A DNA stretch of 19,442 nt from Acidobacteriota bacterium (GTDB taxonomy: Bacteria > Acidobacteriota > UBA6911 > JACQSX01), in NCBI GenBank assembly GCA_036507075.1, contig DASXQR010000019.1:1-19442 (forward strand), in the 5' to 3' direction. Under the pieces are notes generated by a model, which saw only the letters and a list, made by a program, of their open reading frames with translations, searched no databases and was not told where the DNA came from. Positions 1 through 18,177 of the stretch are shown here, piece after piece. Positions within the stretch are counted from its first letter, which is position 1. Each line of letters starts with the position of its first letter. Both the position numbers and the translations under genes were made by a program.

Positions 1-303
1 ACTACTCCAGCCTGTGTCGGCCCCATGGTCACTTTGGGTTGCTTTCTTGATCGTTATCAGACTGCTGCCCGATACCGGATCGTCAAACGTATAGCCGGAA
101 TAGTTGCCATCTGCAACGTAGTAGACATCTCCCCGCACCAGGACTGCCGGCAACTGCGTGTAGGCATTTGTCCAATCCGAACCGGTCTGGTTTCCAGTTG
201 CGCCTTCCCGAACATAACGACTTACACCAAAGGCGACGCTATTTGACGTCACCAAAAGCAGAAGTAGGAAGACACATGTGAAGGTAGGCTTATAGATTCG
301 CAT
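1..303 (-). CDS. Secreted protein, 5' part only (runs off the window edge); probable right-handed beta-helix/pectin-lyase-like N-terminus
   Basis: Hand translation from ATG (complement of 301-303) is open to base 1: MRIYKPTFTCVFLLLLLVTSNSVAFG-VSRYVREGATGNQTGSDWTNAYTQLPAVLVRGDVYYVADGNYSGY... It has a signal-peptide-like N-terminus, GAGAGG SD at 311-316, and a YV..GA.G...GSDW.NAY / GD.YYVA.G.Y pattern typical of beta-helix protein N-termini. Absent from the ORF track because it is truncated. Confidence 0.85.
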   Translation of the reverse strand, partial: MRIYKPTFTCVFLLLLLVTSNSVAFGVSRYVREGATGNQTGSDWTNAYTQLPAVLVRGDVYYVADGNYSGYTFDDPVSGSSLITIKKATQSDHGADTGWSS

Positions 304-381
304 ATTGGTACCTCTCAAGCTCTAAACGCAGAGGCAGGTGAATGGAGTTCGCCGCGTTTTTATTGACGCCCAGGGAGGAAT

Positions 382-403
382 GAGTGTCTTTTTTTTGACA
401 CTC
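382..403. promoter_or_regulatory. Perfect dyad GAGTGTC-T8-GACACTC, candidate transcription-factor/enhancer site
   Basis: 7-bp inverted repeat with an 8-T spacer, lying between the start of the 1-303 gene and the divergent sigma54 motif at 442. Confidence 0.4.
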
Positions 404-441
404 GCGTCTGTAAGTAGTTGGTGAATCCGCTCTGGGGCTAC

Positions 442-457
442 TGGCACAGAACGTGCT
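442..457 (+). promoter_or_regulatory. sigma54 -24/-12 promoter motif
   Basis: TGGCACAGAACGTGCT: GG(443-444)-N10-GC(455-456) with the TGGCAC consensus; -12 element is GTGCT rather than TTGCT. Confidence 0.55.
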
Positions 458-739
458 TGGATAATGTGATAGAAGGGGAGAGGGATGTGTGATCGTGCCG
501 CGATTGTGGCGGCCGATGCGAGGCATTCCGGCGACTTCAGAAATGGCCGCGACAAAACCTATTGAACTTCTAATGGTAAGACCGGGACCGGTCGCGGCGA
601 AGTTGGTAAATGCAGCCGGAATTTCGAGGGGGTCAGTAGCGTCTGCGACTGAACGTGAATCGGACTTAGAAATAGCAAAAAATCTTTGATAGAATCTCGT
701 GGCCATTGCAGTGCTCCTTTGCACAGGCTGCAGTGGTGC

Positions 740-778
740 GCTCCCCTCGGATGCAGCGGCATCCGAGGGGGCTTCCTT
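740..778 (+). terminator. GC-rich hairpin, possible intrinsic terminator
   Basis: Perfect 12-bp stem CCCCTCGGATGC(743-754)/GCATCCGAGGGG(759-770) with a 4-nt loop, followed by pyrimidine-rich TTCCTT (weak U-tract). Confidence 0.45.
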
Positions 779-1149
779 CGTCAATCCTAACTAAGTGTGA
801 TTAGCTGCGCCGAGCATAGACGCATCCCTGTCCAAATGAAGTGAGAGCGATTACAGCCCAGCGAAGCGCCGTGAGAGCAATGACTTGCCGGTGATTTTTG
901 TCGTAAAAAACCAGATTCTAAGCTTGCGAGGAGAACCGGGTTCGGCGCCTCAACAGTCAAAGGCGCGGCACCGACCCGACGCCTCACAGGGTATGCGTTG
1001 CGAGCTCAGCCAGACAAAATCGATTACCTAGGGCTGGATTATCAAGAATCTTCATCGCAAAGGCCACCAAAGAGCGCCAAGGATAGCGTTCTTCGCGTTT
1101 TAAGTTTTCTTGAGATTCGGGCTTAACGCTCCAAGGGTGTTCCACCTTG

Positions 1150-1164
1150 GAAACCTCAGGTTTC
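1150..1164. promoter_or_regulatory. Perfect dyad GAAACCT-C-AGGTTTC, candidate upstream activator site
   Basis: 7-1-7 palindrome about 120 bp upstream of the sigma54 motif at 1276, a typical enhancer distance. Confidence 0.3.
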
Positions 1165-1275
1165 GCGTCCACTATTTCCGCAATTACATAATGTAGGTAA
1201 GTGACTGGCAGCGTCTCAGATCGGCTCGTTCATATAAACCTTTTAGTTACAATTGATTACCGGCTCTCTCTCTGA

Positions 1276-1291
1276 TGGATTGATTCTTGCT
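1276..1291 (+). promoter_or_regulatory. sigma54 -24/-12 promoter motif for the LLM-A-ACP-acyltransferase operon
   Basis: TGGATTGATTCTTGCT: GG(1277-1278)-N10-GC(1289-1290) with a canonical TTGCT -12 element and an AT-rich tract upstream (about 1230-1260). Confidence 0.5.
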
Positions 1292-1311
1292 TGTCCAAGG
1301 TACCGGAGGTC

Positions 1312-1602
1312 ATGAATTCGAACTTAGGCGGCGGATTGGTATCAGCCCGTCCCTATCGTGGCGGAGCATTATCATGCTTTAACGGCAATTCATCCGGATT
1401 TCAGTTGCGACGCTGTGCCTTGGGGTTTTCCCACGAAGTGTCGAGTGCCGATGACATCAAGCACATTGCAGACGCCAGTCCTGCAAAACGAGGATGCATT
1501 TTGACCGGAATTGGACGGCAGACTGTGCCTTCCCGAGTTTCTTCATGGTCCTCAAATTCAAAATTGTTTGAAAGCCTGTTGAGAACAGACCATGGAGTAT
1601 AA
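1312..1602 (+). CDS. Possible 96-aa Ser/Gly-rich hypothetical leader ORF
   Basis: ATG 1312 follows GGAGGT (spacing unusually short) just after the predicted sigma54 start; its stop overlaps the LLM start by 11 nt. No recognisable domain. Confidence 0.25.
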   Translation: MNSNLGGGLVSARPYRGGALSCFNGNSSGFQLRRCALGFSHEVSSADDIKHIADASPAKRGCILTGIGRQTVPSRVSSWSSNSKLFESLLRTDHGV

Positions 1603-2641
1603 GAAATATGATCCGCCGGTGGATGTATTTTCCACAGCGCCACAATCGGCCGACGCGACGCCGGAAGCTTACATTCAGAAAGTGGTCAATGTTGCCCGGT
1701 GGAGCGAAGAGGCCGGGTGCAAGGGAATCCTTATCTACACGGATAATCGACTGGTAGATCCCTGGCTCGTTGCGCAGATAGTAATTCAGAGCACGCAGAG
1801 TTTGCGCCCGCTCGTCGCGATCCAGCCGATCTATATGCATCCGTATTCGGTAGCGAAAATGGTTTCCTCTTTGGCGTTCATGTATGAAAGGCAGATTTAC
1901 CTCAATATGGTGGCAGGGGGGTTTTGCAATGACCTGCTCGCATTATGTGATGAGACACCTCACGATATGCGGTATGAGCGGCTGCGCGAATATACCACGA
2001 TCATCAAAGAACTCCTGTCTAACAGATCGGCCGTAACATTTTCGGGAAAGTTCTATCGGGTTGAAAATTTGCATTTGAAACCCGCGCTTCCGCCTCATTT
2101 ACTCCCGGGGATTTTCATTTCAGGGTCCTCCGAGGCTGGGATGGCGACGGCACGAGCTTTAGGCGCGACAGCTATCGAGTATCCCAGATCGGGAGAGGAA
2201 TACGCTGCTAGGGAAGCCGGCGATCATACCAATTCTGGCATCCGGATAGGCATCATCGCTGCTGAAGATGAAACCACCGCGTGGCAACTGGCGCATGAGC
2301 GATTCCCGCCGGACCGAAAAGGTCAGATCACTCATATGATGGCGATGAAGGCCTCGGATTCACTCTGGCACAAGCAATTGTCCGAACTGGATCAGGAAAT
2401 CCAGGGGCAAGAGACTTGTTACTGGCTCTGGCCTTTCAAGAACTACAAGACGTTCTGTCCGTATCTAGTAGGCAGTTACAAGAAGGTCTCTGAGGAACTT
2501 GCAAAATACATCAAGGCCGGATTCAAGAACTTCATCCTCGACATCCCGGCAGAAAAGCGGGACCTGCAAACCGCTGGGATAGTCTTTACAAAGGCTGTAG
2601 AGGAATCAAGTCAATGGCAATCCTATTGCAGGACTTCGTGA
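1592..2641 (+). CDS. LLM-class (luciferase-like) flavin-dependent monooxygenase, SsuD-like fold
   Basis: 349 aa; SEEAGCKGIL...DPWLVA, LVAIQPIYMHPYSVAKMVSSL, LNMVAG, RYERLREY, FSGKFYRV, IFISGSSEAG and LVGSY motifs fit the bacterial luciferase-like family. An in-frame TGA at 1580-1582 fixes the start. Confidence 0.9.
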   Translation: MEYKKYDPPVDVFSTAPQSADATPEAYIQKVVNVARWSEEAGCKGILIYTDNRLVDPWLVAQIVIQSTQSLRPLVAIQPIYMHPYSVAKMVSSLAFMYERQIYLNMVAGGFCNDLLALCDETPHDMRYERLREYTTIIKELLSNRSAVTFSGKFYRVENLHLKPALPPHLLPGIFISGSSEAGMATARALGATAIEYPRSGEEYAAREAGDHTNSGIRIGIIAAEDETTAWQLAHERFPPDRKGQITHMMAMKASDSLWHKQLSELDQEIQGQETCYWLWPFKNYKTFCPYLVGSYKKVSEELAKYIKAGFKNFILDIPAEKRDLQTAGIVFTKAVEESSQWQSYCRTS

Positions 2642-4257
2642 CTGAACAGGCAAAAACTCGCCCTGAGTCAGTCGCTCTGGTTTTTGAAGAAAAAGCCGTC
2701 ACTTACGGAGAACTGGAAAAGAAGAGCAATCAGTTGGCCTGGCTTCTCAGGGATATGGGATGCGCGAAAGGAGACCGAGTGGTCTTGTTAATGCCCAAAT
2801 CCACAGAAGCGATTCTCAGCATGATTGGAATATTGAAAGCAGGCTGCATTTACGTGCCGATCGATCCGTCTAGCCCTGCTGCCAGGATAGGAAAAGTCCT
2901 GGATTCATGCCAGCCAGCATCTATCTTAACCACGGGGTCTTTGGCTGAGGTTCTCACCCCTATTCCTTCCCCCGATCGCGAAAAGTTGACGATCATAAGC
3001 TGGTTGAGAGAAGGAGAATTAAGTCAGAACGGAATAAAACATGATGTCACGAGGCATGACCTTGACGCGTACAGCGAGGAAAGCCCAAACGTCCGCGTTA
3101 GACCTGATGAGCCTGCACACATTCTGTTTACCTCCGGATCCACGGGCAGTCCTAAAGGTGTGATTATTTCACATGCCAGCGTGCTCCATTTCGTCCAGTG
3201 GGCGAATACGTATTTCACCTCATCCTCTGAGGACAGGAACTCAGGGCATTCACCGTTGTTCTTCGATCTTTCCACTTATGACATTTACGGAACCTTTGCG
3301 TCTGGAGCCAGCCTTTATCCGGTCCGGCCGGAATTGAACCTGCTGCCCCATAAGCTAGCCGAGTTTATCCGAGACCACGAATTGACGAAGTGGTTTTCCG
3401 TGCCCTCCGTTCTCAACTACATGGCTAAGTTCGACGTGGTGAAGGCCAATGACTTCCCCTCGCTAAGACGCATCCTCTGGTGCGGGGAGGCATTTCCAAC
3501 GCCATCTCTCCGGTACTGGATGCAAAAGCTTCCCAGGGTCACCTTCACGAATCTTTATGGGCCAACGGAGACTACGATTGCGAGCAGCTATTACACCGTA
3601 CCCGTCTGTCCTCCACACGACAAGGTTGAAATTCCCATCGGACGTCCGTGTCCCGATGAGGAATTGTTCGTTCTCGACGAAAAGATGTGTTCAGTTGCTC
3701 CTGGAGAGACCGGAGACCTCTACATTTGTGGCGTCGGGCTCAGCACAGGGTATTGGAAGAATCCGGACACAACCGCCAAGGTTTTCTTGAAGAATCCTCT
3801 CAAACCGGAAGCCAACGATATGATCTACAAAACAGGGGATCTAGCGAAAGTCGATGAAGAGGGGCTGATTTATTATGTGGGTCGCTGTGATGCCCAGATA
3901 AAGAGCAGGGGATATCGAATCGAGCTCGGAGAAATTGAAGCCGGATTGCACTCATTCGAGGAATTGCGGGAATCCGCCGTTGTTGCAATTCCCACCGGCG
4001 GGTTCGAGAGTCATCAAATTTGTTGCGCCTACGTTGCACAGGAGGGGAAAGAAGTCACTCCGCTTTTCCTTCGGAAACGGCTATCGACGCTTCTTCCTCC
4101 ATATATGATTCCAAGTCGATTTCGAGAGTTTAGTCAGCTCCCCAGAACTGCAAACGGAAAGATTGATTGCCGTTTCCTAAGGGAAGAATTTGCACACAAT
4201 GAGACTGAAACCAGACACCGGGGATACAGAGGAAGTCTCTCAGCGGATGTTCGATAA
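2614..4257 (+). CDS. Stand-alone amino-acid adenylation enzyme (DltA-like / NRPS A domain)
   Basis: 547 aa; core motifs TYGELEKKSNQLA (A1), HILFTSGSTGSPKG (A3), FDLS (A4), NLYGPTE (A5), YKTGDL (A7), GR.DAQIKSRGYRIELGEIE (A8), LPPYMIP (A9), PRTANGK (A10). No condensation or PCP domain is fused. Confidence 0.93.
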   Translation: MAILLQDFVTEQAKTRPESVALVFEEKAVTYGELEKKSNQLAWLLRDMGCAKGDRVVLLMPKSTEAILSMIGILKAGCIYVPIDPSSPAARIGKVLDSCQPASILTTGSLAEVLTPIPSPDREKLTIISWLREGELSQNGIKHDVTRHDLDAYSEESPNVRVRPDEPAHILFTSGSTGSPKGVIISHASVLHFVQWANTYFTSSSEDRNSGHSPLFFDLSTYDIYGTFASGASLYPVRPELNLLPHKLAEFIRDHELTKWFSVPSVLNYMAKFDVVKANDFPSLRRILWCGEAFPTPSLRYWMQKLPRVTFTNLYGPTETTIASSYYTVPVCPPHDKVEIPIGRPCPDEELFVLDEKMCSVAPGETGDLYICGVGLSTGYWKNPDTTAKVFLKNPLKPEANDMIYKTGDLAKVDEEGLIYYVGRCDAQIKSRGYRIELGEIEAGLHSFEELRESAVVAIPTGGFESHQICCAYVAQEGKEVTPLFLRKRLSTLLPPYMIPSRFREFSQLPRTANGKIDCRFLREEFAHNETETRHRGYRGSLSADVR

Positions 4258-4531
4258 TGGCATCCAGCAGCAGGTTCAGCGCATTCTCGTCGAACAACTA
4301 AACCTGCATCTTCCTTCTCCCGATACCGACCTGATAGGGTCCGGCTTTCTGGATTCCTTGGGCTTTGTCGAGTTGCTCTTGCAATTGGAACAGAGATTCG
4401 GCATTCAGATTAGGATCGAAGCGCTTGAGCTTGATGATCTGAAATCAGTTGCCAAGATCGCAGAATTTGTGGCGAAAAGAGAGAAGGGGCGAAGTCTACC
4501 AACCGGCGAGACGGCGTATCGAGTGAAATGA
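4247..4531 (+). CDS. Acyl/aminoacyl carrier protein (DltC-like, phosphopantetheine-binding)
   Basis: DTDLIGSGFLDSLGFVELLLQLEQRFGI with the attachment Ser at codon 4355-4357. Start placed at ATG 4247 (AGAGGA upstream, overlaps the A-domain stop); ATG 4199 is an alternative. Confidence 0.88.
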   Translation: MFDNGIQQQVQRILVEQLNLHLPSPDTDLIGSGFLDSLGFVELLLQLEQRFGIQIRIEALELDDLKSVAKIAEFVAKREKGRSLPTGETAYRVK

Positions 4532-5079
4532 ACATTGTAAGTTCTTTTTCAGGGGTTTTTAAGAGATTCCTGGGCAAATTGGCTTATATAGCGCCAGGAG
4601 GAAGTAGCCTAAGACCATGGCTTCATCGAATGCGAGGAGCCAAGATCGGGAAGAACGTTTGGATTGGCCAGTTCGTTTACATAGATGAATCTCATCCTGA
4701 GGCGATTTCAATTGGTGAAAACTGTTCAATTGGGCTTAGAACTTCTATCCTCACCCATTTTTACCGCGGACCCAGAAAATCAAAAAGCAATCATGCAGTG
4801 GTAATCGAGAAGGACGTCTTTATAGGCCCGCATTGCTTAATTCTCCCGAATGTGAGGATTGAGGAGGGCGCAGTTATCAAGGCAGGGACGGTAGTGACGT
4901 GGAACGTACCCGCACATGCATTTTGGGGTTTCCCACATGCTGGCATTTTGGGTGAAGCTACAATCCCCCTAACTCCTCAGTATTCCTACGAAGACTTTAT
5001 CCGCGGACTTAGACCTGTCGGCAAAAAGGATGCCATTGAGCGGAGACGGCATTCACCTCAGCGTCGGACTTCAACGTAA
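4528..5079 (+). CDS. Left-handed beta-helix (hexapeptide-repeat) acyltransferase
   Basis: GAKIGKNVWIG, ISIGENCSIG, ILTH, VVIEKDVFIGPHCLILPNVRIEEGAVIKAGTVV hexapeptide repeats; ATGA start/stop overlap with the carrier protein gene. Confidence 0.88.
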   Translation: MNIVSSFSGVFKRFLGKLAYIAPGGSSLRPWLHRMRGAKIGKNVWIGQFVYIDESHPEAISIGENCSIGLRTSILTHFYRGPRKSKSNHAVVIEKDVFIGPHCLILPNVRIEEGAVIKAGTVVTWNVPAHAFWGFPHAGILGEATIPLTPQYSYEDFIRGLRPVGKKDAIERRRHSPQRRTST

Positions 5080-5285
5080 GAATCGGCCTACTCGAATTCA
5101 TTTACGAATCGAAAGTACTACTTAGTTGCCGTAAACTCATGTACGAATTTTTGCCACTGCACTAGGCGCAGATTACACGCATAATCGGCTACCGCTTTAA
5201 GCGGGCGGTTCAGAAGCTTGATTAGTGAAAGCAGCAGAGATAAAGTTTGGTTAGAATGAGGATCCATCGAATGGTGCCGTAGCAG

Positions 5286-5385
5286 CGTTCAGGTGGCAAG
5301 TTTGCGGCGGCAAGAGCTACCAGTTTCTTTTTCGCTAATGTTTAACTGGGCAACTCCTGCTCCCGGAAACTTGCCTCCTTGAACG
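5286..5385. repeat. Long imperfect inverted repeat (REP-like) between convergent genes
   Basis: CGTTCAGGTGGCAAGTTT (5286-5303) pairs with AAACTTGCCTCCTTGAACG (5367-5385); inner GCAAGAGCTACCAGTT pairs imperfectly with AACTGGGCAACTCCTGC. Confidence 0.55.
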
Positions 5386-5414
5386 TAACCCATGCTCACA
5401 TCCGTCGACGCGGG

Positions 5415-6878
5415 CTAAATTATCGGTCTGAACCTCCCGCTTGACCTTATATACGCACTCCAGTGCGGAATTTTTTCCGCAAGGGCTGGAGGAGCGGTGC
5501 CGGCATTGACAGTGTCCTTCTTGCTGTCTGTCGGGCAGCCTGGCTGATCACATGGCTTGTGAAGCTGAATGTTGCCGCCGTCATTATCGTCGTCAGTGGG
5601 ATCCAGATCGCCGCATTCCGGCTCGCCGGCAGGACAGATTTTGCTGGGTTTCAAGTTGTCGGCAAAGTAAACAACATCCCCTTGGCAAGAGCCAGGCGTG
5701 ACGTTTTTAACCAGTACCTGGATGCGGTCGTCCCGGCCAGGTTCACCGTAGTCACAAACCACCGCCCTGTAGCGAAACTGCGTCGGCGCTACACAGCCTT
5801 TTGACGCAGCAATCTGGGCAGCTAATTGCGCAGCACCTCCTGTGAGCTCGGCATTGCCTTCGAACAACCGACAGTGGCAGGGATCTGACGCAACTGCGTT
5901 GTAAACATCAACGTCGACCCCCTTAATGTGGGTCTGGTCATTGTGATCGACCAGATTAAAGTGTCCCTTAATCTCCGTATTGTTCTCACTCCTTGCACCG
6001 GCATTAAAGCCCCAGCTGACTCGCCCGGCCGGACACTCGAGTGGCGGTCCCGGAGGCGCGGGGCATCGCGGTTGAAAATGACCGCCGCCGGTGACAAAAT
6101 CGAAGCACGGTCCCGGTGCTTGGTCCCACACAAATTGCAGAAATGGCACGCCGAGCGATCTGCCCGCCACCCATTTAAGCGCCGCCATCGTCAGGTTGGC
6201 GTCAAGGGAGTTCTTGTACACAGTCTTGTAGCTGACCGGAAGTATCGTGGTTCCCGAACTGACCGAGCTTCCGACACTCGCCAGGATAACCTCACCGCCA
6301 GTCGCGAGGGTGAGGTGAAGGGCATTCACCGTGATTCCCTGGGAACCAGCGCCAGATGCGGACTGCTCATTGATAATGAGAGTTGCTACGCCAGGGATGC
6401 TGACCGTCTGGTTGGGAAGGCCGGTTACTGCGATGGGAATGCCCCCAAAAGTGAGACTGTCGATTTCAGTGGAGCCCCCTGAACCAAGTTCGGTAGCTCT
6501 GGCCTGGGCTCGCACGAACGAAACAGTGAGTTCTGCGGCCTGTCCGGCAAGAACAACGACGCCGGCCAAAGAACTGGAGCTGTTTACCAGACCGGTACCT
6601 GCGCTGGTAGCGCTGTTGGGCACGTTAGCGCTCAAGACTCCGGGAACTCCTGCGGTCACGTTCCCCGCAGCTTCCCATCCCCCGGTTGAAGGTAGCTGAC
6701 CTGTATCTGTAAGGTACAAGGGACCAGCACCCAGTGACGGGACGTTCACGTAGGCGCCAAAGGCGCGGCCCGTATAGGTACCAGCCTCAGCTACAGAAAA
6801 ACAGGCCGCCACAAGGGCAAGGCCGAGGCAGACGGAAAAACTACATTTTAGAAAGTGTTGCTGGCTCTTTTTTTTCAT
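5415..6878 (-). CDS. Secreted choice-of-anchor P-like protein with a C-terminal post-COAP-1-like Cys-rich domain
   Basis: 487 aa; signal peptide ending AEA; Gly/Ser/Ala/Val-rich beta domain with LPNQTVSIPGVATLIINEQ...ITVNALHL; C-terminal domain with FVTGGG, WGFNA, KGHFNLVDH, DYGEPGRDD and GGNIQLH. GGGAGG SD. Family name is from motif recollection, not a search. Confidence 0.8.
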   Translation of the reverse strand: MKKKSQQHFLKCSFSVCLGLALVAACFSVAEAGTYTGRAFGAYVNVPSLGAGPLYLTDTGQLPSTGGWEAAGNVTAGVPGVLSANVPNSATSAGTGLVNSSSSLAGVVVLAGQAAELTVSFVRAQARATELGSGGSTEIDSLTFGGIPIAVTGLPNQTVSIPGVATLIINEQSASGAGSQGITVNALHLTLATGGEVILASVGSSVSSGTTILPVSYKTVYKNSLDANLTMAALKWVAGRSLGVPFLQFVWDQAPGPCFDFVTGGGHFQPRCPAPPGPPLECPAGRVSWGFNAGARSENNTEIKGHFNLVDHNDQTHIKGVDVDVYNAVASDPCHCRLFEGNAELTGGAAQLAAQIAASKGCVAPTQFRYRAVVCDYGEPGRDDRIQVLVKNVTPGSCQGDVVYFADNLKPSKICPAGEPECGDLDPTDDDNDGGNIQLHKPCDQPGCPTDSKKDTVNAGTAPPALAEKIPHWSAYIRSSGRFRPII

Positions 6879-7014: not shown

Positions 7015-7030
7015 GGCAAGAGATGTGCCA
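7015..7030 (-). promoter_or_regulatory. sigma54 -24/-12 promoter for the secreted protein gene
   Basis: Minus strand reads TGGCACATCTCTTGCC, a near-perfect TGGCAC-N5-TTGC, about 140 bp upstream of the ATG at 6878. Confidence 0.8.
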
Positions 7031-7223: not shown

Positions 7224-7709
7224 TCAAGAAATCGTAAGGTTAGTGTATTTTTGGGCGCGCAGGCGCTTGAGGGCGATGTTATACAGCGATGTCAGATTTT
7301 CTGCTTCACTGGGATATACCGCACAGGATGCCTTCAGCGACACAGCTTTGTGCTCTTTTGATACGGAAAGCAGGAAGTCTGATTTCAGACGTTGGAGCAC
7401 TGAGAGACAATTTTCGGCCTTCGAATTTAAGAGAATAACCGCCAGCGTTCTGTTACTTAACGTCCCCACGCCGTCGTTCTGTCGGACGCAGGCCCTCAAG
7501 AAACGGGCCAGATTCGCAAAAAGCGCATCCTGGTCTTTTGGAATTCTAAACAGGAGAAGGGCGACAAAGAATTGATACCTGAGGGCACGCGCTAATTCTT
7601 CTTCTAAAGAATGAAAGAAGAGTTCGCTGTTCAGGCATGGACGATCTGGTTGGAAAGCTCGCAGCAATTCTCCGGACCTCTGTTTAAAATTCATTGCAGT
7701 CAGGCTCAT
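7224..7709 (-). CDS. Stand-alone degenerate GGDEF-domain protein (RxxD I-site retained, active site lost)
   Basis: LNSELFFHSLEEELARALRYQFFVALLLF...LRACVRQNDGVGTLSNRTLAVILL...LKASCAVYP follows the GGDEF fold pattern; the GGDEF position reads SNRTL with RQND five residues upstream. Alternative start at ATG 7694. Confidence 0.8.
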   Translation of the reverse strand: MSLTAMNFKQRSGELLRAFQPDRPCLNSELFFHSLEEELARALRYQFFVALLLFRIPKDQDALFANLARFLRACVRQNDGVGTLSNRTLAVILLNSKAENCLSVLQRLKSDFLLSVSKEHKAVSLKASCAVYPSEAENLTSLYNIALKRLRAQKYTNLTIS

Positions 7710-7724
7710 GCTATGTGTGACCGA

Positions 7725-7740
7725 AGCAAGATTATTGCCA
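7725..7740 (-). promoter_or_regulatory. sigma54 -24/-12 promoter for the degenerate GGDEF gene
   Basis: Minus strand reads TGGCAATAATCTTGCT (GG-N10-GC, TTGCT); predicted +1 near 7714. Confidence 0.7.
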
Positions 7741-8155: not shown

Positions 8156-9565
8156 ATGCACACGTCAGCGCAGCCATTACCCCAACTCTTGTTTATTGAC
8201 GATCAGGAATCCTTTCAGAAATTCGTGACCAGGAACCTGGGTCAGATCGGCTATCACGTAATCACTGTCGGGCACTGGCATGAGGCCAAGAGCCTGATAG
8301 AAAAGGAAAAAGTGCAACCGGAAATTGTATTTGTCGAGCCGCTGTCAAATGGGAACTTTGAGGACCTGAAGGATATCTGTTCTCAAGTTTCACACACTCC
8401 CATCGTGGTGCTGTCCGCATCGAGAGATCCTAAAACCATCCTTAAGGCTCTTCGCCTTGGAGCTCAGGATTACATCTGCAAACCGTTTGATCTTAAAGAA
8501 CTTCAGCGAACCATCGACGAAATTATCATCAGGAAAAGGGCAAAGCTTGAACCTGCTCCACTTCGCGCGAAAGCTGCCGACGATGGATTTGTCTTCAGCA
8601 GCCCCAAAATGAAACAGATCCATGACACCGTCGTCCAGATCGCCAACGAACGGATTCCGTTGTTATTACAAGGGGAAAGCGGTGTCGGCAAAGAGGTTAT
8701 CGCGCGGCTGGTCCATCGGTGTTCCAAATGGTCACGCCGGCCGTTCGTCAAGGTCAACTGCGCGGCGGTACCGGCCGAACTTGCCGAAAGCGAGCTCTTC
8801 GGTTATGAAAAGGGCGCCTTTACCGGCGCTTACATTGACCGGCCTGGCAAGTTCGAGTTTGCAAATGGCGGCACTATCTTTCTCGATGAAATCACCGAAT
8901 TCACTCCCGCCACTCAGGCCAAGCTTTTACAAGTGCTTCAAGATGGAAAATTCACACGCCTCGGCAGTAATCAGGAGATCCAGGTTGATGTTCGAGTCAT
9001 TGCCGCAACCAACCAAAAACTGGACGACGCGATAGAAAAAGGGACTTTTCGAGAAGATTTGTACTATCGCTTAAACGTAGTGAACATTGAAATCCCTCCT
9101 CTGCGAGAGCGAAAGGAAGACATCCCTCTCCTTTGCGACCATTTCCTTTCAAAATTCAGCGAGCAGAACGGGAATCTTAAGAAGATTCCGGAAGTGCTAT
9201 CCAAGCTTTTTCATGCTTATCAATGGCGTGGAAACGTCCGCGAATTGGAAAATTCCATCAAACGTTATCTAGTCATGCAGGATGAGGAAGCTCTTCGAAT
9301 GGAGCTGGAGGCCAAAATATCCAGCCAGACGTTGGATGACATTATCGATAAGGGAAAGAACGAGGAGAGCCTGGATCTCAAGGAAATTGCAAAAAAGGCC
9401 AGCGCTGTCGCTGAAAAGAATATGATCATCAAGACGCTTGCCCAGACCAATTGGAATAAATGGAGGGCGGCTAAAGAGCTAAAGGTCAGCTATAAGACCT
9501 TCCTTACCAAGGTAGTGGAATACGACATAAAACCGCAAACCGGAAAAGTTCTCACTCAAAGTTAG
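8156..9565 (+). CDS. sigma54-dependent transcriptional activator, NtrC/AtoC family (atypical receiver + AAA+ + Fis-type HTH)
   Basis: Receiver LLFIDD...IVFVE...IVVLS...DYICKPF; Walker A GESGVGKE; ESELFGYEKGAFTGA; Walker B IFLDE; FREDLYYRLNV; GNVREL; HTH NKWRAAKELKVSYKT. Confidence 0.95.
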   Translation: MHTSAQPLPQLLFIDDQESFQKFVTRNLGQIGYHVITVGHWHEAKSLIEKEKVQPEIVFVEPLSNGNFEDLKDICSQVSHTPIVVLSASRDPKTILKALRLGAQDYICKPFDLKELQRTIDEIIIRKRAKLEPAPLRAKAADDGFVFSSPKMKQIHDTVVQIANERIPLLLQGESGVGKEVIARLVHRCSKWSRRPFVKVNCAAVPAELAESELFGYEKGAFTGAYIDRPGKFEFANGGTIFLDEITEFTPATQAKLLQVLQDGKFTRLGSNQEIQVDVRVIAATNQKLDDAIEKGTFREDLYYRLNVVNIEIPPLRERKEDIPLLCDHFLSKFSEQNGNLKKIPEVLSKLFHAYQWRGNVRELENSIKRYLVMQDEEALRMELEAKISSQTLDDIIDKGKNEESLDLKEIAKKASAVAEKNMIIKTLAQTNWNKWRAAKELKVSYKTFLTKVVEYDIKPQTGKVLTQS

Positions 9566-9736: not shown

Positions 9737-11233
9737 TTAACCTCCCACCAATTCCCGAAACATTTTCTTCTGACGATCCAGAGCCTTTTGATAGATTTCG
9801 TGATTATCCCAGTTGGGCCGATATTCCCTTCCGATCGCAGCCGGAAGATCTTCAAACTGGTCGATCACGCCCAGTGCGCGCAACGCCAGCAGCGCGGCGC
9901 CACGGCTGGAAGCCTCCGTCTCTTCCGAAGCCAGAATGGGGCGGCCGAGTGCATCGGCCATCATTTGCTTCCAGACATTTGAAGCCAGCAGCGCGCCGCC
10001 GGTCGCAATCACCTGCGCTTTTCTGGCGACGATTCCCTTCAACAGTTGCTCGATCAGGGCAAACCTGCAGGCAACCGCCTCCAGAAAGGCCTGCGCCACC
10101 TGTACGGGCGTAGTCTGCAGAGTAAAGCCTGAGATCGCGCCCCGGGCATGATCGGCCCATTCGGGACTCCGCTCACCCAGTAGAAAAGGAAGCACGGTCA
10201 GCCCGTGCGAATCCGGTTTGAGTTTGGAAATGAGATTTTCCAACTGCGGCGCCGGCGGGAGATTAAATGTTTCGCGCAGCCAGGGTATCAGAATCCCGCC
10301 GTTTGAAAGAGCGCCTCCCATTAGAATCCGTTTCCGGTCTGCGCGATAACACCAGAGTCCCGGCACGATCTCAAACGAGGCCGGCTGCCAGCAGACGCGC
10401 ATCGCTCCCGACGTTCCAACCATCAGCGCCAGCCGGTTCTCGTCGACGCAGCCGCATCCAATATTACTGGTTGCGCCATCGCCCACCGCAGGAATCCAGC
10501 GGGTCGTCTTCCAACTCGACCAGCGCGCCGCAAAAGTAGGAGCCAGCGGTGGAAGTTCTTCCTGAAGGCCCACCAGAAGGGGCAACTGCGAGCGTTCAAT
10601 CGGCAGTTCACGCAGCGTCTCGTTGTCCCAGTCCTGCGTGTGTTGGTTGAACAGGCCGCTGGCCGAGGCCATAGACACGCTGCAGTGATCGGTACCGAGC
10701 AATTGCCGATAGAGATACTCTCCAAAGGACAGCCAGCGCGCCGCCCGCTCCAGCAGATCAGGACGCGAATGGCGCAGCCATACAAGCTTGGGAGGCACAT
10801 AGCTGTGGTGGAACATGCAGCCGGTGCGCGCGTGGTATTGCTGTTCGTCCAGGCGGGCGCGCAGCGCGGCGGCCGCCTGACGGCTTCTCACATCCGCCCA
10901 GAGATAAACCGGAGTAACCGCATTGCCGCTGGAATTGACGCCCACCAGGCTGTGCCAGAAAGTGCAGGTTGCGACCGCACCCACTCTCCTGGCGAGCGTG
11001 CCGGTCTTGCGATACAACTCCTGGAGGCAAAGCACCACGGAATCCACCAGTTCGGTCGTATCCAGTTCGACGCCGCCGTCTGCCGTGTTGTGCAGTTTAT
11101 GGGAAACAGTTGAGTCCATGCCGGCAATCTGCCGGGCGCGCGCATCATAAAGGATGGCTCGCGTGGAAGAAGTTCCTACATCCAGCGCCACGACCAGCGG
11201 GTCGACAGCCGAGGAAGGCTCAATCGGCGGCAT
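9737..11233 (-). CDS. gntK: FGGY-family carbohydrate kinase, gluconokinase-like
   Basis: 498 aa; ALDVGTSSTR, TFWHSLVGV, YLWADVR, YHARTGCMFH, SMASASGLFN, GDGATSNIG, MVGTSGAMR, GGALSNGG, PFLLGERSP, ATGG motifs match Bacillus-type GntK. Confidence 0.85.
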   Translation of the reverse strand: MPPIEPSSAVDPLVVALDVGTSSTRAILYDARARQIAGMDSTVSHKLHNTADGGVELDTTELVDSVVLCLQELYRKTGTLARRVGAVATCTFWHSLVGVNSSGNAVTPVYLWADVRSRQAAAALRARLDEQQYHARTGCMFHHSYVPPKLVWLRHSRPDLLERAARWLSFGEYLYRQLLGTDHCSVSMASASGLFNQHTQDWDNETLRELPIERSQLPLLVGLQEELPPLAPTFAARWSSWKTTRWIPAVGDGATSNIGCGCVDENRLALMVGTSGAMRVCWQPASFEIVPGLWCYRADRKRILMGGALSNGGILIPWLRETFNLPPAPQLENLISKLKPDSHGLTVLPFLLGERSPEWADHARGAISGFTLQTTPVQVAQAFLEAVACRFALIEQLLKGIVARKAQVIATGGALLASNVWKQMMADALGRPILASEETEASSRGAALLALRALGVIDQFEDLPAAIGREYRPNWDNHEIYQKALDRQKKMFRELVGG

Positions 11234-11251
11234 CAGAGTGGAATTGAAGCC

Positions 11252-11323
11252 GAATGCGGAATTCGGAATGCGGAATGCGGAATAAAGCTGTCGTTTGTCC
11301 GTCGTCCGTTGTCCGTTGTCGGT
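11252..11323. repeat. Two adjacent heptamer tandem arrays, (GAATGCG)x4.5 and (TGTCCGT)x5
   Basis: GAATGCG GAATTCG GAATGCG GAATGCG GAAT at 11252-11283; TGTCGTT TGTCCGT CGTCCGT TGTCCGT TGTCGGT at 11289-11323. Confidence 0.85.
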
Positions 11324-11343
11324 TATTCACTGTGAGATAGAGT

Positions 11344-11384
11344 CCTCTGCGAAACTTGGCGCACTTTGCGGCTCTGCGGTGAAC
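11344..11384. repeat. 9-10-nt periodic repeat (CTCTGCG/CTTTGCG...GGTGAA family)
   Basis: CCTCTGCGAAACTTGGCGCACTTTGCGGCTCTGCGGTGAAC; same architecture as the right arm end at 9705-9732. Confidence 0.6.
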
Positions 11385-11412
11385 GCGATCTCGGTTCTGT
11401 TGCAGCTCAATC

Positions 11413-12687
11413 TCAATTTCGCCGGTACAGATAAAGATCCCGGCCTGCGTTCTCAATCACGAGAGAATCCGCATCTCGAATTTGATCGGGGTCGACGCGG
11501 CCCGGGTCCTGATACTGCAGATTCACCTGGTGACATTCCTCCCTGGGAACCTGCGAAGCAAGAGTGATTTGAAAACGGGGCGTTTCGACGCCATCCTTCC
11601 ACTCACCTGCATAACGCACATGTGTGAGATGCGCGGCTACGCACAGGTTTTTTTGCAAATCCTCGTTCCGGCTGACCATTTCCTTGACCCTTCCGAGGAC
11701 GTGATACCCGTAACGTCGAATCAAATCGCCGTGAGTTAATGAAATGTGGCGCAGGTGCGGCGCCACGATCAACAGCTCGCCGCCCGGCTGGATAACGGCG
11801 CCGATCCGGTAGCTTGCCTTGCCTCCTGTCCAAAGTTCATCGTAGTGCGGATCCAGCATGGCGACCACGCGCTTGAAGCGACGCGTCACGAAACGAACGT
11901 GTACCCGCGAGCTGACCGCTGCCGCCCTTTCAAACGCGCCGATGATGTTTCCGGTAAACAGCGCATGGGTGCGCAACCGCCCGTCGTCAGCACGCGTGGA
12001 AACAGAATTAAATGAGATCACCTGTTGAATGATGGACCTTGAGGCCTCATTCAAAAGGCGCCGGATGGGAGTATCAAGGTTGCCAATGGTGTTTTCGATA
12101 GTAGCCAGGGCCCCTACCCAATGGGTGGCATGGGTGACGTCAGGTCCGCCGACGCCCGGAAAGAAATATTTCGTTCCTCCTGAAAAACCAGCCACCTCGT
12201 GCGGCGTCGTCCCGCCAATCACAAAAACAGTGTCATACAGCCCCGGACCCAGCAGCCGGTTGATTCGCAGGTTCACCTCCTGCGCATACAGACCATCGGT
12301 AAGTTCAATAACCCTTTGCGCGCTTATTCTGCCGATCGCGGTCAGGTGAGCCGGGTCATCCCAGTGATGATCAAAGATCGTTCCCAGCTTGCGCAACGAT
12401 GTATGCAGGCCAGCGCCGATCTTCGCTCGCTTTTCCGACCCGGTCATTGGAGGGTGGGTTCCCTGCGCGATCAATACATCAATACGGCCGACTGTTTCGG
12501 GAAGCTCCTCACACAGGATGGGGAAAAGCACATCGGTCAAGTCATCGCGGGTTTTGTCGGGCACGATCGCCAGGATCGTTCGCCCAGGCCTGCAGGAAGC
12601 AAAGGTCTCTTTAACGATGGCTCGGATCGCGGTCGAGTCCAGATCAACTTCGGCTCCACCGATTCCGCCGGTCCATTTTGTGTGCAT
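11413..12687 (-). CDS. LarA-superfamily (lactate racemase domain) nickel-pincer 2-hydroxyacid racemase/epimerase; GntE-like candidate
   Basis: 424 aa from ATG 12687 (the ORF-track extension to 13053 overlaps the SDR and a REP). Motifs PDKTR, AQGTH, PHEVAGFSGGTKYFFPG, THATHW and ELWTGGK correspond to LarA cofactor-binding and catalytic Asp/Arg/His/Lys residues. Confidence 0.88.
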   Translation of the reverse strand: MHTKWTGGIGGAEVDLDSTAIRAIVKETFASCRPGRTILAIVPDKTRDDLTDVLFPILCEELPETVGRIDVLIAQGTHPPMTGSEKRAKIGAGLHTSLRKLGTIFDHHWDDPAHLTAIGRISAQRVIELTDGLYAQEVNLRINRLLGPGLYDTVFVIGGTTPHEVAGFSGGTKYFFPGVGGPDVTHATHWVGALATIENTIGNLDTPIRRLLNEASRSIIQQVISFNSVSTRADDGRLRTHALFTGNIIGAFERAAAVSSRVHVRFVTRRFKRVVAMLDPHYDELWTGGKASYRIGAVIQPGGELLIVAPHLRHISLTHGDLIRRYGYHVLGRVKEMVSRNEDLQKNLCVAAHLTHVRYAGEWKDGVETPRFQITLASQVPREECHQVNLQYQDPGRVDPDQIRDADSLVIENAGRDLYLYRRN

Positions 12688-12705
12688 CAAATTAGTATAC
12701 GCGAT

Positions 12706-12788
12706 GTAGGGGCGGCCTGACATGGCCGCCCGATTCGCCGATTTGACCAGCGGCAACCATGCGGGCGGCCATGTCAGGCCGCCCCCAC
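12706..12788. repeat. GTAG/GTGG-type REP doublet (REPIN-like)
   Basis: GTAGGGGCGGCCTGACATGGCCGCCCG (12706-12732) and an inverted copy at 12762-12788 differing only GTAG to GTGG; each unit is itself palindromic (GGGCGGCC-tgacat-GGCCGCCC). Confidence 0.88.
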
Positions 12789-12797
12789 GGTTTTGAT

Positions 12798-13571
12798 TTA
12801 CTGGTTTACGCCCGAGGCCAGCAACCCGCCGTCTACCACCAGAATTTCTCCCGTCACGTAGCTGGCCGACTCTGAGGCGAGGAAAATCGCGGCGCCGACC
12901 AGTTCTTCCACCTGTCCGAAGCGACCCATGGGAGTGCGCAGCTTGAATTCCCTTCCCCGCTCGGTGCCATCCAGCAACGCGGTGTTCAACGGGGTCCGAA
13001 ACACGCCGGGCGCAATCGCGTTCACATTCACTCCATACTTGCACCACTCGCATCCCAGACTCTTGGTGAGCATCGCCACTCCGGCTTTAGAAGCCGAATA
13101 GGCCGAAGTTTCATGCAGGCTCACAAACGAAGCCAGCGATCCAATGTTAATGATGCGGCCGTAGCCGCGCGCGATCATTCCCTTGCCGAAAATCTGGCAG
13201 GAGCGCAGCGTCCCGGTCAGATTCGTGTTCAAAATGGCATTCCAGTCGTCTTCTGTCATCTCCAGTGTGGGAACGCGCTTTGTGCGCCCCGCAGAATTGA
13301 CCAGAATGTCCACGCGCCCGAACTCTGTTGTCACGCGGTCGTGCAGCTTCTGCAGCGAAGCACGATCGTCGACGTCGCCTGTGGCGCGCAGCGTCCGCCT
13401 GCCTTTGGCTTCAATGTCGGCGGCCGTGGCATCTACCTGCTCCTGGCGGCGACTGGCAGGAACGACACTGGCGCCGGCGTCTGCAAATCCCAGGGCAATG
13501 GCCTTTCCTATTCCGCTGGTGCCGCCAAGCACCACAGCTACTTTGTCTGTCAAACTGAGTTTTGAATACAT
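12798..13571 (-). CDS. Classical SDR oxidoreductase (gluconate 5-dehydrogenase/KduD/UxuD-like)
   Basis: 257 aa; VLGGTSGIG, ASRR (basic, NADP-type), DILVNSAG, NTNL, IGS, YSASK, VNAIAPG, RTPMGRFG, VDGG. Confidence 0.92.
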   Translation of the reverse strand: MYSKLSLTDKVAVVLGGTSGIGKAIALGFADAGASVVPASRRQEQVDATAADIEAKGRRTLRATGDVDDRASLQKLHDRVTTEFGRVDILVNSAGRTKRVPTLEMTEDDWNAILNTNLTGTLRSCQIFGKGMIARGYGRIINIGSLASFVSLHETSAYSASKAGVAMLTKSLGCEWCKYGVNVNAIAPGVFRTPLNTALLDGTERGREFKLRTPMGRFGQVEELVGAAIFLASESASYVTGEILVVDGGLLASGVNQ

Positions 13572-13700
13572 TCAAATGAGCGCCGGCAGTAATTACCAGT
13601 GCCGGGAATCCATAGGGCGACGCACAAAAATATCATCAAGTGCCAAAAACGCCGTGAAAAATTCGAGCAGCAGTCTGACAGCGAGCACCTGGCACAAAAC

Positions 13701-13750
13701 CTGGCTTGGTGCCTTGGTGGTTTCATTTTTTTAACCACCAAGACACCAAG
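13701..13750. repeat. Inverted pair of the CTTGGTGCCTTGGTGGTT/AACCACCAAGACACCAAG repeat
   Basis: 18-bp arms at 13705-13722 and 13733-13750 with one mismatch; the 22-mer 13701-13722 is identical to 14901-14922. Confidence 0.8.
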
Positions 13751-13877
13751 GCACCATTCCGTCACCCGACGAATATGCAGTTTCCACTTGCAAGGCTTTG
13801 CCGCCTTCTAGTTAACTTTCCATTCTGGACAATGTCGACAACTGGTAACTCATGCTCCTGTTAACTTGTGACTTGCA

Positions 13878-14894
13878 ATGGATTTTGGATTAATCGGAAC
13901 CGGGCTGATCGCCGACATCCACGCTGAGGCGATTCGCAACATATCGGGCTGCCGCGTGTCGGCCGCCTGGGGGCGGAATTTCGAGCGTACGCAACAGTTC
14001 TGCTCCCGTTTTGGAGGTTCGCCGTTTCGAGAAGCCGGCGATCTATTCAGGTCCAAAGAGGTCGAAGCCGTTGTCATCTGCACCCCCAGCGGAACGCATG
14101 CGGACCTTGGAATTCAGGCGGCCCGCAATGGCAAGCACGTGCTGGTGGAGAAGCCGATCGATATCAGCCTGGAGCGGGCTGATGCGCTCATCTCCGCCTG
14201 CCGCGAAGCAGGAGTGAAACTGGCCACCTGTTTTCAGAGGCGCTGCCTTGACCACGTCAGGCAGGTCAAGGAAATGGTTGATGCGGGAAAACTCGGACGG
14301 CTGCTGGTGGTGGACGCTTTTATCAAATGGTATCGAAAACCAGGCTACTACGCCGGGAGCTGGCACGGCACTAAAGCGTTAGATGGAGGAGGGGCGCTGA
14401 TTAATCAGGGCATCCACGCCGTGGACTGGCTTCTCTGGATCGGCGGTCCTGTTCGGAGCGTTGCCGCCCGAACGCGTACTCTGCTCCATAAGATTGAAGC
14501 CGAGGATACGGCGCTGGCAGTGCTGGAATTCTCAAACGGAGCTGCGGGACTGATCGAGGCCACAACCTGTGTTTATCCCGGTTTTGCCATGCGCCTGGAA
14601 ATCACCGGGGAAAAGGGTTCCATTACGATTACTCCCGATGCTGTAGAATTTGCCGAAATCACCAACATCCCAGATGCGATCAAGCTCTTCCACCGCGCCG
14701 GGCTGGATGATGGGAGCAGCGATCCGGGGAACATCGGCTGGGAAACGCATCGGCGACTGATCGAGGACTTCATCATCTCCATCCGGGAAAATCGAAAGCC
14801 GCTGGTGGACGGCACGGAAGGACGCCGGTCGCTGGAACTGGTATGCGCCGTCTACGAATCCTCCGCAAAGCAGCAGTGGATCACGCTGAAGTAA
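13878..14894 (+). CDS. Gfo/Idh/MocA-family NAD(P)-dependent oxidoreductase
   Basis: 338 aa; GLIGTGLIA, VVICTPSGTH, GKHVLVEKP, FQRR, GGGALINQGIHAVD, EAEDTA. Confidence 0.93.
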   Translation: MDFGLIGTGLIADIHAEAIRNISGCRVSAAWGRNFERTQQFCSRFGGSPFREAGDLFRSKEVEAVVICTPSGTHADLGIQAARNGKHVLVEKPIDISLERADALISACREAGVKLATCFQRRCLDHVRQVKEMVDAGKLGRLLVVDAFIKWYRKPGYYAGSWHGTKALDGGGALINQGIHAVDWLLWIGGPVRSVAARTRTLLHKIEAEDTALAVLEFSNGAAGLIEATTCVYPGFAMRLEITGEKGSITITPDAVEFAEITNIPDAIKLFHRAGLDDGSSDPGNIGWETHRRLIEDFIISIRENRKPLVDGTEGRRSLELVCAVYESSAKQQWITLK

Positions 14895-14900
14895 ATTAAG

Positions 14901-14958
14901 CTGGCTTGGTGCCTTGGTGGTTGGAACTTTTCACCACAAAGGCACAAACAGCACAAAG
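14901..14958. repeat. Same nonamer-periodic repeat family, inverted pair
   Basis: CTGGCTTGGTGCCTTGGTGGTT (14901-14922) followed by CACCACAAAGGCACAAACAGCACAAAG (14932-14958). Confidence 0.75.
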
Positions 14959-14980
14959 CACGATTCTGCAATCGTAATAA

Positions 14981-15955: not shown

Positions 15956-16012
15956 TGAAAATCAGTACCGCGTCCCGTCAGGGCGCGGCGGACAATGTTT
16001 GTCGGCTCTTCT

Positions 16013-16130
16013 GAATTGAAAATAGGGAGAATTGAAAATAGTGAAAATATGAATTGAAAATAGGGACAGTCCCCTTTTTCCGGTTAATGGGGGACAGTCC
16101 CCTTTTTTCGGTTTAATGGGGACAGTCCCC
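16013..16130. repeat. AT-rich GAATTGAAAATAG repeats followed by three 28-nt-period units with a GGGGACAGTCCCC palindrome
   Basis: GAATTGAAAATAG at 16013, 16029 and 16051; (G)GGGACAGTCCCC at 16063, 16090 and 16118. Confidence 0.8.
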
Positions 16131-16142
16131 ATCTCGCCTCAA

Positions 16143-16260
16143 CAGTACCGCGGTGCGTCAGCCCGCGGCGCGCGCATCACCGTAATCTGATTGATCGGGG
16201 CGCCGCTTATCCTCAAGGTCGGTCGATGCGCGCGCCACGGGCTGACGCACCGCGGTACTG
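16143..16260. repeat. 36-bp-arm inverted repeat CAGTACCGCGGTGCGTCAGCCCG... (REP/REPIN-like)
   Basis: Arms 16143-16178 and 16225-16260 match at 35/36; a diverged half copy CAGTACCGCGTCCCGTCAGGGCGCGGCG begins at 15963. Confidence 0.85.
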
Positions 16261-16328
16261 ATCGGCAGGGTCGTGCGCGCTTTTTGGCGGTCACAACGAC
16301 ACTAAGTGACCATTAATCCACGGTTTCC

Positions 16329-16337
16329 TGTTAAAAT
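16329..16337 (+). promoter_or_regulatory. Extended -10 promoter (TG-n-TAAAAT) for a probably leaderless transcript
   Basis: TGTTAAAAT lies 6 nt before ATG 16344; no SD is present. Confidence 0.55.
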
Positions 16338-16343
16338 AGCCCC

Positions 16344-17915: not shown

Positions 17916-17970
17916 CAAACTCTTTTAACACAGTGGGAAACGGCGGAGATCAAGAACGCGTGCTGCGGCA

Positions 17971-18167: not shown

Positions 18168-18177
18168 GGAAGGTTCA

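Follow-up and report, generated by a model that had tools for sequence, protein, structure and literature searches.

A four-gene cassette of an Acidobacteriota bacterium that may oxidise carrier-bound glycine and pass it to a surface glycan

We describe a compact cassette of four genes on contig DASXQR010000019.1 of an Acidobacteriota bacterium (assembly GCA_036507075.1; genome G000 below, 6.1 Mb and 95.7% complete). The window, by which we mean the whole stretch of DNA analysed, is this entire contig (C19) of 19,442 nucleotides. The genes encode, in order, a luciferase-like monooxygenase (LLM), an adenylation enzyme (A enzyme), a carrier protein and a left-handed β-helix (LbH) acyltransferase, and they match the Pfam families Bac_luciferase, AMP-binding with AMP-binding_C, PP-binding and Hexapep, all above cut-off. 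Our reading, to which we give not quite an even chance, is that the cassette loads glycine, oxidises it on the carrier, and has the LbH enzyme hand the oxidised unit on to a surface-glycan sugar. On this reading, a widespread module of LLM, A enzyme and carrier occurs here in a form with an LbH exit. The cassette appears to be a genuine variant, not yet characterised, of carrier-based envelope aminoacylation, working like the AlmEF pair with a butirosin- or skyllamycin-style oxygenase. By tests of family, motif and linkage it is a member of none of Alm, Dlt and SsuD. The overlaps between the genes reported in the initial annotation, of 28 nt (LLM/A), 11 nt (A/carrier) and 4 nt (carrier/LbH, ATGA), are borne out by the open reading frame (ORF) coordinates. 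Both flanking genes lie on the opposite strand, one for a probably secreted protein and truncated at the contig end, the other for a choice-of-anchor P protein, and the cassette is thus a self-contained unit.

LLM relatives are encoded in 530 species-genome stretches, of which the best 80 were analysed. Of these 80 loci, 54 have at least 4 kb downstream, and the 26 shorter ones were set aside where room was needed. Their record titles name more than 10 phylum-level groups, and the 119 best other LLM clusters are 59-79% identical to the window LLM. The A gene follows directly after the LLM in 51 of the 54 loci with room (69 of all 80), and a carrier is found within 6 kb in 52 of the 54 (63 of 80). 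The conserved unit is three genes: LLM, stand-alone A enzyme and carrier. The overlap of LLM and A genes recurs in 53 of the 68 related loci having an A gene, and is therefore not a chance feature. The usual position of a further enzyme is between the A enzyme and the carrier, and this is a formyltransferase in 28/54 loci and a small GNAT in 6/54; one or other is present in 33 of the 51 core loci, never both, and exactly one of the 80 loci has the two together. Over all 80, this cap slot holds a formyltransferase alone in 33, a small GNAT alone in 8, a methyltransferase alone in 4 and an AAC(3)-family enzyme in 3, one of these with a small GNAT. A double-GNAT-like protein of about 370 aa occurs in 34 of the 51 core loci. 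The suggested linkage to polysaccharide loci is also seen in the relatives, where 32 of the 54 loci have glycan genes close to the LLM by a limited profile set. Further afield, the four plasmid relatives that were opened (of eight, at 41-50% identity) all lie, by annotation, in clusters of adenylating enzymes together with carrier, nonribosomal peptide synthetase (NRPS) or phosphopantetheinyl transferase (PPTase) genes, which favours action of the LLM on a tethered substrate.

The pocket of the A enzyme points to glycine as the probable substrate. The enzyme scores 387 bits with TIGR01733, above cut-off, and falls below cut-off with both DltA models (319 bits against 476, and 302 against 560). 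Its pocket code had been read by eye correctly (positions 235-331, D-L-Y-F-L-C-L-I-A). In alignments to PDB entries DLYFLCLIA shares 6 of 9 residues with AlmE (4OXI; DLHLFCLIA) and 5 of 9 with DltA (DLMTLCTVA); by this code AlmE/AlmF are nearer than DltA/DltC, which had been put forward as the model loader. The code of IdnL7 in the same alignments is DCFFLALIT. Entry 4OXI is the glycine enzyme AlmE, whose gatekeepers L248 and C316 were verified by mutagenesis, and in DltA the neighbouring residues are smaller (Ser to Ala, Leu to Thr), making room for D-Ala (PMC11253843). Both AlmE gatekeepers (Leu 236, Cys 301) are present in the window enzyme as L219 and C290, and at the positions of the smaller DltA neighbours, as assigned through the PDB alignments, it has the AlmE-type S213 and L314. 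Set against the D-Ala pocket of DltA, it has the Cys at 301 and Leu instead of Thr at 322. In the close clade of A enzymes L219 is kept in 57/58, C290 in 57/58 and L314 in 58/58, with the code mostly DLFFLCLIA (44/58), and a second clade, 32% identical, has nearly the same code. Code and residues therefore fit glycine better than the DltA substrate, in agreement with the earlier suspicion that D-Ala is probably not loaded. D-Ala is the main alternative, because AlmE mis-activates it and because distant relatives carry a DltA-like code. The PltF-type proline ligase entry 6O6E gave the marginally highest pocket-region score, yet has Ala and not Cys at 301. Cysteine, suggested by a known Cys code, was set aside, as the PDB alignments match the pocket to AlmE and to small-residue enzymes of the IdnL7 type.

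The LLM (PF00296) is a group C monooxygenase, dependent on flavin mononucleotide (FMN), of an unnamed family. Its predicted model (pLDDT 89) has the barrel of the group C fold and comes nearest to MsuD, SfnG and SsuD, with MsuD (7K14) at Z 31.9 and rmsd 2.8 Å over 323 aligned residues. However, it scores 101 bits with the SsuD models TIGR03565 and NF001939, against cut-offs of 518 and 510. Sulfonate turnover by MsuD requires W195, R225 and an RGGA loop (PMC8234197). At these places the window enzyme, aligned at about 24% identity, has Y197, R218 (the Arg being kept) and a YKTF loop; in the family, Tyr occupies the Trp position in 79/80, the R225 equivalent is present in 80/80, and the loop has no Arg. 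A crude motif test found an ATP-binding cassette (ABC) ATPase within 4 kb in 0 of the 80 loci. Low score, missing Trp and loop, and absent ABC ATPase together indicate that this is not an ordinary SsuD, as the initial annotation supposed. Given the precedents of Sky39, NyuM, EpcG and the SolF domain, and the butirosin route, our best guess by analogy is that the LLM would hydroxylate the α-carbon of an N-capped glycyl thioester; on chemical grounds, N-capping would keep the hydroxylated product from falling apart. None of the 11 NCBIfam matches of the LLM is to a natural-product LLM-domain model, and matches at E 1e-35 were found in 2 of 401 sampled genomes of the G416 phylum, neither identified as a cluster of the Sky39, NyuM or BtrO type. 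A 31-row tree, built on 27 of the 80 loci, places the window LLM in a clade (support 100/99) with those of L012, L013 and L014. Three of these four (window, L012 and L014) have an LbH gene right after the carrier, and among the three the A enzymes and the LbH enzymes each come from two subclades. The signature of the LLM subclade is found in 59 of the 119 top protein homologues.

It is worth adding some observations on LLM relatives. In 41 related genomes, no intact LLM orthologue was found outside G000, and only three fragments in G036 (L109, L110 and L111), which are partial C-terminal copies beside transposase-like genes; after one of these copies come a broken A gene and a methyltransferase. 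In loci L026, L032, L047 and L076, labelled Gemmatimonadota or Chloroflexi, the LLM has no adjoining A gene, but genes for an FAD oxidoreductase and for an acyltransferase of the AAC(3) family lie close to it. A metagenome scan with the single LLM gave one weak locus, which was set aside. A search for fusions gave seven long proteins, with LLM-A in three, formyltransferase-LLM in one and DegT-LLM in one. Of the LLM-A joins two are truncated, and an efflux-pump domain is attached to one LLM; these may be assembly artefacts and were given little weight.

The carrier (PF00550) is a stand-alone protein scoring below cut-off with both DltC models (38 bits against 68, and 33 against 52). Its predicted phosphopantetheine serine, S37, and the preceding D36 are invariant in 41 aligned carriers. 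The LbH enzyme is predicted to be a short left-handed β-helix acyltransferase of a carrier-associated subfamily. LpxA, LpxD and kindred LbH enzymes use carrier-bound donors; the window protein matches the LpxA and LpxD models weakly (31 bits against 226, and 30 against 207), as it does TIGR02353, all far below cut-off. In alignment with a galactoside O-acetyltransferase its H77 falls on the ATH-motif His, and it has basic N-terminal helices, the first 45 residues carrying a net charge of +8, against -4 for the carrier domain. Searches gave LbH homologues in 3 of 400 other genomes of the phylum and 4 of 136 other genomes of the class, making six distinct genomes, and in all six a carrier and an adenylating enzyme are encoded no more than about 5.5 kb from the LbH gene. 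That adenylating partner is exosortase-ligase-like in three, part of an operon containing LuxE, LuxC and FabZ in one, a glycine-type A enzyme plus two more in one, and in the last the A portion of a single oxalate-ligase-like polypeptide in which A enzyme, carrier (T) and LbH are joined. These six loci, with the A-T-LbH fusion among them, bear out the placing of the LbH in a carrier-associated subfamily. For none of the six other LbH-like ORFs of G000 was an A enzyme or carrier detected on the same contig. No LbH match was obtained in plasmids or in viral contigs, nor in 201 genomes of the G420 phylum, a search that had no positive control. The LbH subclades have supports of 85/92 and 87/94; the LbH of G261 groups with those of L012 and L014 (87/94), and the window LbH is in the sister subclade. 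A double-GNAT was not detected in G000 or in G418. Read most simply, the LbH occupies the exit slot otherwise held by the double-GNAT, as a minority replacement in a three-gene core that normally uses that transferase.

Three of these LbH loci may be described individually. In G261 (L108:7095-9683) the oxalate-CoA-ligase-like A enzyme, carrier and LbH form one polypeptide within a polysaccharide locus (E 4.6e-124 to 5IE0), an arrangement that predicts oxalylation of a glycan. In G1059 (L137:9124-14881) a glycine-type A enzyme, a carrier, two more stand-alone A enzymes and an LbH stand in a row without an LLM. In G1079 (L136:3500-9687) genes for a carrier, an acyl ligase, LuxE-like, LuxC-like and FabZ-like proteins and an LbH lie within a polysaccharide locus.

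Other parts of the system appear to be encoded elsewhere in the genome. Contig C126 encodes an A-T protein, a P450, a protein with condensation (C) and T domains, an Sfp-type PPTase, an unnamed 452-aa protein and a formyltransferase. The last scores 467 bits on the profile of the cassette formyltransferases and is 57% identical to cassette members, and orthologues of it and of the 452-aa protein come directly before the LLM in L014; a capping step was missing from the scheme first proposed. G000 has one FMN reductase, on another contig, and loci with Wzz, Wza and sugar-transferase genes on C221 and other contigs. Similar secreted proteins, at C126:2-625 and C221:3-1109, run off the contig ends next to cassette-related or polysaccharide genes.

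The load-oxidise-transfer logic on a stand-alone carrier, as originally suggested, is supported by this gene context, and the reactions might run as follows. The Sfp-type PPTase of C126 would make the holo-carrier, and the A enzyme, whose pocket is known from the alignments, would form glycyl-AMP and load Ser37, as expected from AlmE. The C126 formyltransferase orthologue could then N-formylate the tethered glycine. In what is the least certain step, the LLM, with FMNH2 supplied in trans by a reductase, would hydroxylate the α-carbon to give N-formyl-α-hydroxyglycyl-S-carrier, by analogy to Sky39 and to BtrO, the LLM α-hydroxylase of the butirosin route. Finally the LbH trimer, acting through His77 in place of the double-GNAT transferase of most relatives, would move the unit to an amine or hydroxyl group, either on a nucleotide sugar or on a Wzy-type exopolysaccharide repeat unit.

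Several known systems resemble parts of this scheme. In Vibrio cholerae AlmE, AlmF and AlmG place glycine on lipid A (PMC4278540, PMC12930378, PMC11253843). Like them, the cassette has a stand-alone A enzyme with a Leu/Cys-gated glycine-type pocket and a stand-alone carrier, and a cytoplasmic acyltransferase would, as in Alm, unload the carrier onto an envelope glycoconjugate. Unlike them, it adds an LLM and an N-capping enzyme, its exit enzyme is an LbH instead of a lipid A acyltransferase of the AlmG type, and its acceptor is probably an exopolysaccharide sugar. No such acyltransferase is linked: a hexapeptide protein follows the carrier, and after it the coding strand changes. With Dlt the cassette shares a CGE-type A enzyme and a DltC-like carrier, both scoring below the family cut-offs; it differs in its bulky residues at 239 and 278 as well as in the Leu at 322, in the lack of a linked MBOAT (DltB) or DltD, and in the extra oxygenase. 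The butirosin gene set and carrier chemistry (PMC13707489, PMC11350588) also involve a carrier-bound, N-protected aminoacyl unit that is hydroxylated and moved to an amino sugar, but the unit is glutamate-derived, a ligase and decarboxylase stand in place of the glycine A enzyme, a BtrH-type transferase in place of the LbH, and the acceptor is an antibiotic. Flavin monooxygenases that make α-hydroxyglycine are Sky39, a stand-alone LLM acting on glycine, NyuM, a 357-aa stand-alone LLM (PMC12224093) proposed to do so, EpcG, and the NRPS-embedded domains of solanimycin (SolF), myxothiazol and melithiazol (PMC9321520, PMC12224093, PMC10204066). Like tailoring LLMs of the Sky39 and BtrO type, the present family is encoded with adenylation and carrier genes, whereas Sky39, NyuM and EpcG act on NRPS peptides and lack a cassette with stand-alone carrier and LbH. 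With LpxA, LpxD and the terminal domains of Pls/PosA the LbH shares its fold and catalytic His; it is only 183 aa long, and its proposed donor is a small oxidised aminoacyl unit rather than a fatty acyl chain or lysine. The resemblance to SsuD and MsuD is in the LLM barrel and does not extend to the full sulfonate motif or to scores above cut-off. In the open-access papers searched we found no account of an exopolysaccharide system combining LLM, adenylation enzyme and formyltransferase, of an LLM working with a carrier and a formyltransferase on glycine, or of an LbH exit from a stand-alone carrier.

A number of results weigh against the proposed transfer of oxidised glycine by the LbH. Conservation of all four genes together, on which the initial annotation made its reading depend, holds for LLM, A enzyme and carrier, but just 2 of the 80 loci (L012 and L014) have an LbH homologous to that of the window after the carrier, one of them among the 54 with room, and L013, the fourth member of the LLM subclade, has none. 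The six further LbH genomes contain no match to this LLM at E 1e-30. The role of the LbH is thus not restricted to oxidised donors, and the loaders beside it elsewhere include acyl-CoA-ligase-like and oxalate-ligase-like enzymes. Its best structural matches are the acetyl-CoA enzymes VatA (Z 14.9) and QdtC (14.6), followed by LpxA (13.9), and the fold as modelled does not distinguish use of acetyl-CoA from use of a carrier. In G419 the LbH cassette is accompanied by a second LLM-A cassette and by two double-GNATs, with no formyltransferase match at E 1e-10. The fold of the LLM is nearer MsuD than a polyketide synthase or NRPS oxidase domain (Z 21.9), and K286, kept in 75/80 LLMs, might partly replace the loop Arg. 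As to the substrate, a Streptomyces relative (41%) lies beside an NRPS with non-glycine-like pockets, and two alphaproteobacterial relatives are paired with the DltA-like pocket DVFVLCTVA. Finally, no glycan gene flanks the window cassette, the link being made through relatives and other contigs.

These points bear differently on the possible alternatives. The loader and oxygenase may be as proposed while the LbH works from acetyl-CoA in the ordinary way, acetylating either a sugar or the unit on the carrier, and another enzyme unloads the carrier. The structural matches to acetyl-CoA N- and O-acetyltransferases suit this, as does G419 with its double-GNATs and no formyltransferase match, and the genome has candidate unloaders in a FemAB/GNAT-like protein (C95, E 1e-4), two strong AsnB-like amidotransferase genes and one MBOAT, the only one found in G000 (C83, with no carrier gene seen beside it). 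We nevertheless consider it rather unlikely, as six of six independent LbH loci are carrier-linked, one by fusion, and as LbH and formyltransferase occur together in G000 and G418 although capping enzymes mostly exclude each other. A second possibility is improbable: that the LLM N-hydroxylates glycyl-carrier, which is then formylated to a hadacidin-like hydroxamate and placed by the LbH on a glycan, giving a metal-binding polysaccharide. The variety of the cap slot, with formyltransferase, small GNAT, methyltransferase or AAC(3)-family enzyme, is compatible with it, and FrbF provides the order of hydroxylation followed by acylation, with an AAC(3)-family enzyme acting on the hydroxylamine; however, we know of no N-hydroxylase of the LLM class, and the LLM precedents cited above oxygenate carbon. 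Hadacidin itself is described as an N-formyl-N-hydroxyglycine-type structure (PMC2111929).

It is decidedly improbable that oxidised glycine loses its nitrogen and that what reaches the sugar from the carrier is a two-carbon unit of glyoxylyl, oxamoyl or oxalyl type. The G261 LbH, fused to an oxalate-CoA-ligase-like A-T unit and grouping with the LbHs of L012 and L014, would fit this, and cleavage of a carbinolamide after α-hydroxylation is described for myxothiazol and melithiazol (PMC10204066); but a conserved N-capping enzyme would then be wasted, and the window LbH belongs to the sister subclade. Nor is it at all likely that the unit feeds a small-molecule NRPS product, and not a glycan, through the A-T, P450 and C-T genes of C126. 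Orthologues of that A-T protein (with the same DAWFLGNVV code), of the P450 (about 70%) and of the C domain do adjoin the LLM cassette in about 15 of the 80 loci. However, most cassette loci have no NRPS, and the C126 C-T protein (L093:4532-6349) reads THDIVYDDW where 15/15 relatives have LHHIIFDGY and lacks their A and thioesterase domains; it may be a decaying or non-catalytic piece of an NRPS, and the lost catalytic motif weakens this alternative. Hardly any credence can be given to an LLM that scavenges free alkanesulfonates in the manner of SsuD, unconnected with the carrier. Its nearest fold and families are those of MsuD and SsuD, the R225 equivalent is invariant and many source labels read alkanesulfonate monooxygenase, yet the score, the absence of W195, the RGGA loop and a nearby ABC ATPase, and the tie to A enzyme and carrier in 51 of 54 loci all speak against it.

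The features of the locus are collected in Table 1. For the carrier the ORF caller picks an upstream TTG start at 4190 in place of the ATG. Positions 112-3286, which take in the LLM/A overlap, are matched with zero differences by contigs of a second run (X2); the A/carrier junction is spanned by an X3 contig, and the carrier/LbH junction only by X1, which is possibly the source of this DNA itself. Among the 12 window proteins scanned in Pfam there is no condensation, thioesterase, MBOAT, PPTase or flavin-reductase family, in line with the initial annotation.

Table 1. Coordinates and residues of the cassette and of candidate regulatory features in the window.
Feature	Position	Strand	Remarks
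LLM oxygenase gene	1592..2641	+	349 aa
A enzyme gene	2614..4257	+	547 aa
Carrier gene	4247..4531	+	ATG start, 94 aa
LbH gene	4528..5079	+	183 aa
A enzyme pocket residues	D218, L219, C290, L314		AlmE-like (glycine-type)
Predicted phosphopantetheine serine S37	codon 4355-4357	+	LDS motif
LbH H77	codon 4756-4758	+	invariant in alignments of 25 and 49 sequences
Sigma-54 (-24/-12)-like site	442..457	+	one mismatch; about 1.1 kb upstream of LLM
Sigma-54 response regulator	8156-9565	+	next to the sites at 7015-7030 and 7725-7740

The sigma-54-like site upstream of the LLM is, tentatively, a possible promoter of the cassette. The window has four such sites against 0.72 expected, a number reached in 3 of 200 shuffles; scans for sigma-70 promoters and terminators gave chance level only. 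Of two others, the one at 7015-7030 (-) immediately precedes the choice-of-anchor P gene (5415-6878) and the one at 7725-7740 (-) a small GGDEF-like gene (7224-7709); these genes and the cassette possibly form one sigma-54 regulon. A 62% paralogue of the window response regulator adjoins the exopolysaccharide locus on C221. The gaps at 320-1590 and 5080-5414 gave no protein match in the genome or in related loci. The region 9737-19317 is a sugar-catabolism block unrelated to the cassette (57% GC, against about 50%), with an FGGY kinase, a lactate-racemase-like protein and an altronate/galactarate dehydratase by Pfam, and an SDR, a Gfo/Idh/MocA protein, an epimerase and a zinc dehydrogenase by eye.

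Carrier-based envelope aminoacylation is known mainly from Dlt and Alm. If our reading is right, soil bacteria of many phyla would decorate exopolysaccharide by NRPS-style oxidation on a free carrier, with LbH enzymes as an interchangeable exit step; a function would be named for a family found at 530 places and often labelled alkanesulfonate monooxygenase, and a new glycan substituent would be predicted. A wider proposal, possible though doubtful, is that the unnamed LbH subfamily quite generally provides the exit from stand-alone carrier modules of polysaccharide loci, with loaders of the glycine, oxalate and acyl-ligase types, and here installs N-formyl-α-hydroxyglycyl, or a hadacidin-like N-formyl-N-hydroxyglycyl group, on exopolysaccharide. 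We know of no glycan with either substituent, and an exopolysaccharide carrying N-formyl-hydroxyglycyl groups would form a possibly metal-chelating or chemically labile coat.

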